Position numbers and translations under genes: made by a program | The notes under the pieces: model-generated | Seen by the model: only the letters and a program-made list of their open reading frames with translations | Told to the model about the DNA's origin: nothing | Databases searched by the model: none | NCBI GenBank assembly: GCA_964016885.1 | Contig: OZ024742.1 | Span: 197,842,001 to 197,906,000, forward strand | Source: Eledone cirrhosa | Lineage: Eukaryota | Length of the DNA stretch: 64,000 nucleotides | Direction of reading: 5' to 3' | Shown here: positions 23,323 through 26,300 of the stretch, piece after piece | Layout: the number at the start of each line of letters is the position of its first letter | Position numbering within the stretch: position 1 is the first letter of the stretch

Positions 23323-26300
23323 CGGGGACCCGTCGGATAAATGAAAATAAAATTAAAAATAAAAGCAAAAACAAAAACCATAACCTACATAAAAATAACC
23401 ACTACCACAGTCACCAACAGTCTTCTAAACAGGAAACTTCTTCCTCTTTTTTAGCCATAATGAATCTGGCAAAAGAACTGGAAAAAAACATTCGAGCTAT
23501 CACCCAGCACCACCCTCCACTATCACCCCACTGCACAAACTCCCATTGCTGCCATTAACAAACAAACAAATTAACAACACACCAAAACAATTAAAACCAT
23601 CCACTCTCGCCTCTACATTTTTGCTTAACGCCCAAGGCATCAGCCCTTCCACCAATACTCAAAAATGGAAGATCAAATTCCTGGAGGACTGGATTGATGT
23701 CCATCCAAACCACATCCCTTTCTTCGTCCTCACTGAAACCCATCTCAGTAACCTCCACTTGGAAGCCGAGGTGAAAGTGAAAAATTTCAAAGCCATCCGT
23801 GCTGATCGCGCTGGCAGAAGAAAGGGCGGAACTGCCATTTATGTCCATAATTCTTTCTCAACAGAGGCTATGAACATATTCACTAATGGATACTGTGAGG
23901 CAGTCACTGTATTCAGTCAAACCAACAACCTATTAGTAGTTGGGCTCTATAGGCCACCCCAAACGCCTGTACCATGCTTCAAGGAATGCCTCAACAGCAT
24001 AAAGTGTTTCATCCAAGAGTGTCACCCTGACAACATCTTAATGATGGGGGACTTCAACCTCCCCGGAGTTGACTGGTCCACAAACACCCTGCCACCAGGT
24101 TCTTCTGCCTCAACCTCTGACAGGGAAGCTGTGGAATCGCTTCTTGACTTCATGGATGATTTCTTCCTATCCCAACTAGTGCTCGAACCAACGAGGTGCC
24201 ACAAAAACGTCCTAGACTTAATTTTCAGCAATCACACTGACAATATCCACAATATTGCAGTGGAGAAAACTCTACTCTCTGATCATGACATGGTTCTCTG
24301 TGATCTCAGTTTCCACCGTCCAATATACAAACCCAATGTCATTTCTCCTGTCCATCCGTTTGACGCTATGGATTTCCACAATGCAAACTGGGAAGCGATC
24401 AGTCATGATCTTGCACATGTCGACTGGTCCTTCACGCACACTCATACACCCACTAACATCAAAAAGTCCTGGCAGACATTTGTGGACACTGTTACAAACA
24501 TATGTGCTAAACACACCCCATTAAGAACTATAAACAAATCTAAGAGCAGAATCCCTAGAAATAGAAAAACACTCATCAGAAAAATTAAGAGAACGAACAA
24601 AAAAATCAACAAGCTGAAATACTGTCAGCAGCAACACATCAACTTGACTGCCATTTCATCACTAGAGATTAAAAAACATAACCTCCAAAACAACATAATG
24701 TCCCTCATCAACAATCAGAGAAGAGCTGAAGAGGCCTGGGCCATTGAGAAGATCAAACTCAATCCCAAAGTGTTCTTTTCATTTGCAAAAAAACACAAAA
24801 TCACTGGCTCTACTGTTGGCCCTCTAATTGATGAAAATGGCACTCTTCAAGACAATGCTAAAACCATGGGTGAGATACTGCAGAAACAATACTGCTCTGT
24901 TTTCAGCAATCCTGATATGGCCGATCTGGGCTGTATCGGCGATGTTACTCCCCATTACACCTTATCGGACATAACGTTTGGCGCCCCTGATGTCTTGGCG
25001 GCAATAAAGGAAATCAAGCATAATTCAGCAGTAGGTCCCGATAGGTTCCCTGCTTGTGTCTTGAAGGCGTGTCAACACCAACTTGCTTCTCCTCTTGCCA
25101 ATCTGTGGCGGAACTCACTGGATGCTGGATATGTGCCAGAAAACCTTCTATCCCAGTCTGTTGTCCCAGTTTTCAAAAAGGGAAACAAATCCCTTGCCGT
25201 GAATTACCGTCCAATCTCACTCACCTCTCATATCATTAAGGTATTTGAGCGAGTGGTGAGATCGCGAATGACCCACTTCCTTGAGAGTAACAATATGCTG
25301 AACTCCAACCAGCATGGATTCCGTAATGGAAGGGATTGCCTGACGCAACTACTGCATCACTTTGATGACATTTTGAGAGCCTTGGGAGAGGGTTCCAACA
25401 CTGATGTTATCTACCTTGATTTCAGCAAGGCCTTTGACAGGGTTGATCATAACATTCTACTGAGAAAGCTGTCCAATATTGGTGTCACTGGAAAGCTGCT
25501 GCAGTGGATCAAGAGCTTCCTGTCAAACAGAACCCAACATGTTGTAGTTGAGGGAGTCAAATCAAGCCCAGCCAAAGTCAGTAGTGGAGTCCCACAAGGC
25601 ACTGTGTTGGGCCCACTTCTCTTCATCATCTATATTAATGACATCACTGACATCATCAAACACAGCAACATTAAAATTTTCGCTGATGATTCCAAGCTCC
25701 AAAAGGTCATCAATGGCGTGGATGACCGGATAAGCCTTCAGTCAGACCTACTGGCTGTTACCCAATGGGCAGAAAAGAACAACATGTTACTGAACGAAGA
25801 CAAATTCGAACTGATCCACTTTGGAAAAGAGGATGCTCTGAAACTCCCGTACTCCCTTCCCTCCGGGGAAACTCTCGTGGCATCTAACAACATCAGAGAC
25901 TTGGGAGTAACCGTGGACAGCAACATAAGCTGGACCACGCATATAAGCAGCAAAGTTGACATGGCCCGCAGAATGTGTTCCTGGATCCTCAGAACCTTCC
26001 AGTCGAGAGATTCCCGCACCATTATCCTTCTCTTCTCTACTTTCGCCCGACCACACCTTGAATACTGTTGTCCACTGTGGTCTCCCCACACGAAACAAAG
26101 TATCATGAAACTTGAAGCTCCTCAAAGGGCAATCACGAAAAAGATAGATGGCATGTCAGACCTTGACTACTGGGGTCGATTGGAAAACCTGAAACTTTAC
26201 TCACTCCAACGTCGCCGTGAGCGTTATATTATCTGCATGATGTGGAAAATGTTCCATCATCACTGCCCAAATGATGTTGGCATCGCCTTCAAGATACACC

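Follow-up and report, generated by a model that had tools for sequence, protein, structure and literature searches.

The HIV-1 gag-pol shift site and the role of the codon that follows it are described in PMC4373837. The LINE that we analyzed, found in a window of 64,000 nucleotides (the whole stretch of DNA under study), carries the identical U UUU UUA followed by a codon starting with G, with a structural ORF upstream and the enzyme ORF in the −1 frame, and several of its relatives have a stem-loop shortly downstream of the site, as HIV-1 does. It differs from HIV-1 in belonging to a non-LTR clade without a protease, in accepting any GNN as the following codon, and in the stem-loop itself, which is absent in the window LINE family and not conserved in one register among relatives.

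Among non-LTR elements, Dictyostelium TRE5-A and TRE3-A are said to need a −1 frameshift for ORF2 (figure legend in PMC5911963). These elements are APE-type, as is the LINE here, but they belong to amoebae, target tRNA genes, and have a poly(A) tail as well as a zinc finger at the C terminus. Frameshifting has been proposed too for Paramecium non-LTR groups 1 and 2, where a +1 shift or reinitiation was left open (excerpts of PMC5405496), and it is described for Drosophila HeT-A, where the shift lies within gag and there is no RT (excerpts of PMC5009743). HeT-A and TART are the sole non-LTR elements named in the first 300,000 of the 449,034 characters of PMC5009743, in which CR1 never appears.

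The mechanism that reviews give for LINEs is termination-reinitiation; the excerpts of PMC2881922 and PMC3894237 discuss it and do not use the word frameshift, and PMC3894237 calls the translation of LINE ORF2 an open question. SART1 and L1 resemble the present element in being bicistronic LINEs whose ORF2 depends on ORF1 translation, and a UAAUG overlap gives the same −1 phase (excerpts of PMC3894237 and PMC2881922). In SART1 and L1, a separate ORF2 protein starts at or after the ORF1 stop, whereas here the ORF2 frame is open far upstream, to the slippery site. With its APE and RT domains, short tandem-repeat 3′ tail, and variable ORF1, the LINE is like the CR1/L2 group of the Jockey superfamily (excerpts of PMC4120745), but its clade stands apart from bird proteins and its ORF1 has CCCH-type motifs. 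The words "CCCH" and "frameshift" are absent from the excerpts of PMC4120745 (a survey of 448 elements) and PMC13343379, and those of PMC1965478, PMC5006619, and PMC10294476 hold nothing on the present site. A −1 frameshift is already stated for the Dictyostelium TRE LINEs; our search of open-access articles found no paper on the slippery site or on the clade described here. Papers of the 1990s on turtle and chicken CR1 reportedly noted overlapping ORFs and raised frameshifting.

LINE copies and coding frames in the window

The window holds two copies of the LINE in opposite orientation, 99.8% identical over 3,332 nt and both 5′-truncated within ORF1 (Table 1). The element has the makeup of an APE-type non-LTR retrotransposon: APE and RT domains in ORF2, dispersed 5′-truncated copies, a repeat tail, and no LTRs. 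A 29-nt junction pattern has 588 exact matches in the 3.0-Gb genome, and the window LINE family is a young, abundant CR1-group element with about 600 copies that include the junction. In natural full-length copies, ORF1 has 391 aa with polyglutamine and two C-x8-C-x4-C-x3-H motifs; its N terminus is weakly Myb-like (Pfam E value of 0.002, below the cutoff), and Pfam gave no significant family for ORF1, the CCCH-type motifs included.

Table 1. Positions of the LINE copies and of their coding features in the window
Feature	Position	Strand	Remarks
LINE copy 2	23323..26652	+	5′-truncated inside ORF1; TA/TACA microsatellite on flanks
LINE copy 1	15280..19172	−	longer 5′ part; 99.8% identical to copy 2
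ORF1 3′ end, copy 2	23325..23558	+	natural copy L003 has a full ORF1 of 391 aa
ORF2 open frame	23429..26566	+	1045 aa; in the −1 phase of ORF1; endonuclease not preceded by an AUG
Conserved slippery site, U UUU UUA and following G	23447..23454	+	putative −1 frameshift site
Same slippery heptamer, copy 1	18481..18487	−	
ORF1-frame amphipathic segment	23448..23507	+	starts at the Phe-Leu of the site; dual-coded; pattern conserved clade-wide
Second heptamer, A AAA AAC	23483..23489	+	not conserved, likely incidental
Second heptamer, copy 1	18445..18451	−	
APE-type endonuclease domain	23603..24295	+	PF14529 and PF03372 over ORF2 aa 82-289; alignment for first strand
Reverse transcriptase domain	25181..25912	+	PF00078, E value of 4e-31
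3′ tail, two short (8-nt) tandem repeats	26637..26652	+	from sequence
ORF1 CCCH-type motif 1 (C-x8-C-x4-C-x3-H)	18781..18837	−	read from sequence
ORF1 CCCH-type motif 2	18616..18672	−	read from sequence

The sequence-only reading had described ORF2 as lacking an AUG before the APE domain, and its coordinates hold: the first in-frame Met lies in EAMNIF, beyond the LNAQG and TETH motifs. The overlap with ORF1, given there as about 130 nt, is 130 nt, with the ORF1 stop codon at 23556 to 23558. Both reported heptamers are in ORF1 codon phase and recur in copy 1. The conserved one sits at the exact start of the last amphipathic segment of ORF1, which, from its hydrophobic spacing, is probably a helix or coiled coil. 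Taken alone, the heptamers of the window are weak evidence, because 19 in-phase heptamers occur per 3584 upstream ORF1 codons of relatives, so that about 0.2 is expected by chance per 43-codon overlap, and because two copies that are 99.8% identical are not independent.

TA/TACA microsatellite surrounds both window copies (15080 to 15280, 19172 to 19760, 20190 to 23322, and 26652 to 28210), and many other copies (most of L001 to L030) abut it at their 5′ truncation. Its presence at truncation points suggests a target preference or tail-primed repeat growth. The window also contains a second, distant RT element, which we take to be RTE-like, at 46543 to 48963 (−), 5874 to 6611 (+), and about 14350 to 14590 (+), with fragments elsewhere in the window; a PHD-like finger follows its RT domain (Pfam E values of 5e-5 and 9e-7).

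Conservation of the slippery site among relatives

Protein searches of the LINE's own genome found sister families B and C, whose ORF2 is 37 to 40% identical to that of the window LINE family, and repeated searches gave the same few families. From a metagenome scan, the best 80 of 83 loci were kept; 74 junctions were examined, leaving aside 6 loci whose match was confined to later endonuclease parts. A quick tree of the APE domain, built from 63 loci and three own-genome families after 17 near-duplicates or partial matches were left out, placed the window LINE family in a single clade of 26 rows (SH-aLRT of 100), and the RT tree agreed with this clade and set it apart from two bird proteins. 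Named references were limited to these two and one protein of Hydra, and in relation to CR1 the clade is separate from the bird proteins at an unresolved fork. The few top hits that carried a name included proteins of bird genomes, presumably CR1; of the RT relatives with a name, the nearest came from Argonauta hians. A scan of viral contigs found no relatives.

The site was covered in 19 of the 26 clade rows, and since L099 and L100 are near-identical, we counted 18 distinct families, with pairwise endonuclease identities of 28 to 64% (median, 37%). The seven other rows (L097, L107, L109, L111, L116, L121, and L123) begin downstream or are truncated there; in L109, which seems to have decayed, the presumed overlap contains a stop in the −1 frame.

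In all 18 covered families, from the best 80 of 83 loci and the own genome, ORF2 is in the −1 phase and an in-phase X XXY YYZ heptamer occupies a single homologous position. The heptamer is U UUU UUA in 16, U UUU UUG in one (L117), and U UUA AAC in one (L110), and the next base is always G. In every family, it sits on the first two codons of a recognizable ORF1 segment; because that segment begins there, the place of the heptamer is fixed independently. This junction feature is real and deeply conserved, and to judge from the sequences, it is the cross-family conservation of the first site that stands above chance. The conservation check proposed in the sequence-only reading thus came out in favor of the −1 overlap and the first heptamer (18/18) and against the second, A AAA AAC, which is found in 1/18 families; its A run is shortened in 2 of 15 variant copies and also in one relative's contig, and we rejected it as a shift site.

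At the site, Phe is UUU in 17/17 and Leu is UUA or UUG in 17/17, and the base before the Phe codon is U in 18/18, though it belongs to codons for different amino acids (S, D, Y, H, P, L, N). In contrast, the endonuclease's conserved Phe columns have UUC:UUU ratios of 7:8, 13:4, and 11:4, its Leu columns use 5 to 6 codons, and its Asp and Asn columns are also mixed, as are Lys, Glu, and Leu a few codons 3′ of the site. An all-slippery synonymous choice would arise by chance with a probability of ~1e-26 if families are treated as independent, a significance that shared ancestry overstates. In L110, Leu-Asn stands where its close relatives L108 and L112 have Phe-Leu, and the heptamer is still canonical; U UUA AAC is among the most shift-prone heptamers (excerpts of PMC5009743). 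As read from these codons, the constraint at the site is one that acts on nucleotides. U UUU UUA was absent in every phase of the upstream ORF1 sequence examined in relatives.

The −1 frame is open throughout from the site to the ORF1 stop in all 18 families, over distances of 34 to 212 codons. No −1 frame stops were observed there, against 49 expected from ORF1 amino acids and codon use, although this openness is partly built in, the sites having first been located by scanning the open −1 frame; the ORF1 segment fixes their place independently. The same calculation upstream gave 265 stops observed and 284 expected. The −1 frame opens exactly at the heptamer in 3 families and within 6 codons of it in 11/18.

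In contigs of related organisms at about 90% identity, substitutions flank the heptamer and none falls inside it. The match to a more distant family is confined to an island (18458 to 18489), with an in-phase 6-nt length change downstream. Among 15 variant copies fetched by a pattern excluding the site, the heptamer is kept in 12 (95 to 99.6% identical), and no perfect heptamer is found in 3 old single copies of the same genome (68 to 78%, with 5 to 8 gaps), as decay would allow.

Several features of other loci were recorded. In L102, L103, L105, and L117, dual-coding overlaps of about 600 to 640 nt have no stops in either frame and set a glutamine/proline-rich ORF1 tail against a Ser/Thr/Asn/Pro linker in the other frame. 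The ORF1 of the marine relatives L101, L102, L108, and L118 carries three CCCH-type motifs after a PHD-like region. Outside the clade, the metagenome loci L127, L131, L132, L143, L155, and L164 have an in-phase heptamer in a −1 overlap (U UUU UUG, A AAA AAC, U UUA AAC plus stop, or U UUU UUA); the one with U UUA AAC plus stop is L143, whose place in the trees is near the bird proteins. L122, L124, L167, L129, L133, and L161 have a −1 overlap without a canonical heptamer, and the close relatives of L127 lack its site.

Proposed fusion protein and sequence 3′ of the site

We consider it very probable, from the comparisons among relatives, that U UUU UUA at 23447 to 23453 is a programmed −1 frameshift site producing an ORF1-ORF2 fusion. 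The fusion by frameshifting put forward in the sequence-only reading is thereby supported by relatives at the first site and not at the second, the shift itself being inferred. Most ribosomes would complete ORF1 (391 aa), and a minority, having reached about residue 357 of ORF1, would slip into the −1 frame on U UUU UUA and translate another 1,037 codons, for a fusion of about 1,390 aa. Retained in it would be the N-terminal part of ORF1 and the zinc fingers; the last ORF1 amphipathic segment and tail would be replaced by a low-complexity Ser/Thr/Pro-rich linker, followed by the endonuclease and reverse transcriptase.

Folding signal 3′ of the site is uneven across the clade. The 45-nt window beginning 5 nt 3′ of the site has a mean folding z of −1.77 relative to shuffles, with z ≤ −2 in 9/18 families; among 15 other windows, 12 lie between −0.41 and +0.11 and three have a mean z of −0.9 to −1.0. 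The signal comes from a 12-family subclade (mean z of −2.29), while the six other families, including the window LINE family, average −0.72. A hairpin derived from L110 has 55.6% of cells paired across the 12-family subclade, against 30 to 49% for slid controls, a figure biased by the hairpin's origin, and RNAalifold found no shared consensus fold. About half of the relatives have a predicted hairpin that starts ~8 nt 3′ of the site, and the window LINE family is without one: its 3′ window folds at −4.3 kcal/mol (z of −0.9), and sister family B is weak too. The GCCA/TGGC hairpin was rejected as a stimulator; it begins at the first base 3′ of the heptamer, leaving no spacer, and is absent from minimum-energy folds. 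The caution about a weak hairpin voiced in the sequence-only reading was thus well placed, as no good stimulator is predicted in the window LINE family. Without a hairpin, shifting in this family would be inefficient or would rely on some other stimulator. Since LINEs need little ORF2 protein, low efficiency may suffice.

The proposed route differs from the standard stop-and-restart model, which gives a separate ORF2 protein, and a defined, deeply conserved shift site makes this alternative to reinitiation testable. If frameshifting is used, the enzyme would be fused to ORF1 and produced, like its retroviral counterparts, at a set ratio; models of how LINE ribonucleoproteins assemble would change, ORF2 starts would be misannotated across the clade, and its elements would be exposed to host anti-frameshift factors. 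Natural stimulators, including cases without an obvious hairpin, would be added to those described. We lean, by a narrow measure, toward a wider reading in which a widespread animal LINE clade with a CCCH-finger ORF1 has used a retrovirus-style −1 shift since its origin, with its RT always fused to ORF1 and the enzymes taking the place of the terminal coiled segment of ORF1; the distant CR1/L2-group sites would make this a second major route to ORF2, and the window LINE family would shift without a local hairpin.

Alternative routes to ORF2

Termination-reinitiation is a serious rival, and it could coexist with frameshifting. As in L1 and SART1, ribosomes would restart near the ORF1 stop, using an AUG or a near-cognate codon (TTG at 23546 or CTG at 23549), and the Phe-Leu would be kept for reasons of the ORF1 protein; as an account of this junction we think it improbable. 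The ORF1 stop lies ≤68 nt from the first conserved Asn of the endonuclease in 18/18 families and ≤44 nt in 17/18, a proximity that frameshifting does not require, and stop-start overlaps in L102 and L112 (UAAUG/UGAUG) give the same −1 phase. The clustering of ORF1 stops arises partly because hydrophobic ORF2 codons create ORF1-frame stops; the ORF1 tail is nevertheless longer than composition predicts, with 33 stops expected against about 18 by construction. The 18 families share no conserved start codon at the ORF1 stop or immediately 3′ of it: the stop-start overlap is confined to the two named, a usable AUG occurs in 5/18, and in 13/18 there is no AUG between the site and the Asn. In family C, the ORF1 stop is at the Asn itself. 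The TTG at 23546, which the sequence-only reading had offered as a competing ORF2 start, is not conserved, and 4/18 families lack any near-cognate codon within 30 nt of the end of ORF1; where such codons occur at −4, they result incidentally from overlap of the stop with an NUA/NUG codon. Reinitiation also leaves unexplained the fixed synonymous codons, the Leu-Asn swap in L110, and a −1 frame open for 34 to 212 codons above the stop.

It is very doubtful that UUUUUUAG acts instead as a 3′ splice or trans-splice acceptor, with ORF2 starting from a spliced upstream exon. A U6-AG is present in 16/18 families, and the window LINE family has a pyrimidine tract upstream, but the AG is lost in L110 and L117, whose next AG is in a different phase, and in families A to C the first AUG 3′ of the AG belongs to the ORF1 frame. 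Spliced RNA should, we infer, also be reverse-transcribed, yet no junction copies were found: 0/615 genomic copies have a base other than T at the position 4 nt ahead of the downstream anchor (a T-bearing junction would be missed), and TTAG is present in 97/100 copies among the matches listed. In contigs of three runs covering the site, whose status as RNA is a guess, neither a joint nor a loose end occurs at the AG.

Slippage by the polymerase during transcription of the six-T run, by which a base added in some transcripts would bring ORF1 and ORF2 into frame, is just as hard to credit: six genomic copies do have a seventh T that fuses the frames at the site, but 588 have six Ts, the six seven-T variants stand on different sub-lineage backgrounds with no amplified subfamily, and the L110 heptamer is not homopolymeric.

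The six extra-T natural copies with ORF1 and ORF2 in frame (L091 to L096) are mostly more diverged than the best-matching copies. A gene model of Petrolisthes manimaculis (P0064) has an annotated protein that joins an ORF1-like part to ORF2 and contains FFR, the −1 read at the site, which suggests that gene predictors bridge the junction by an intron.
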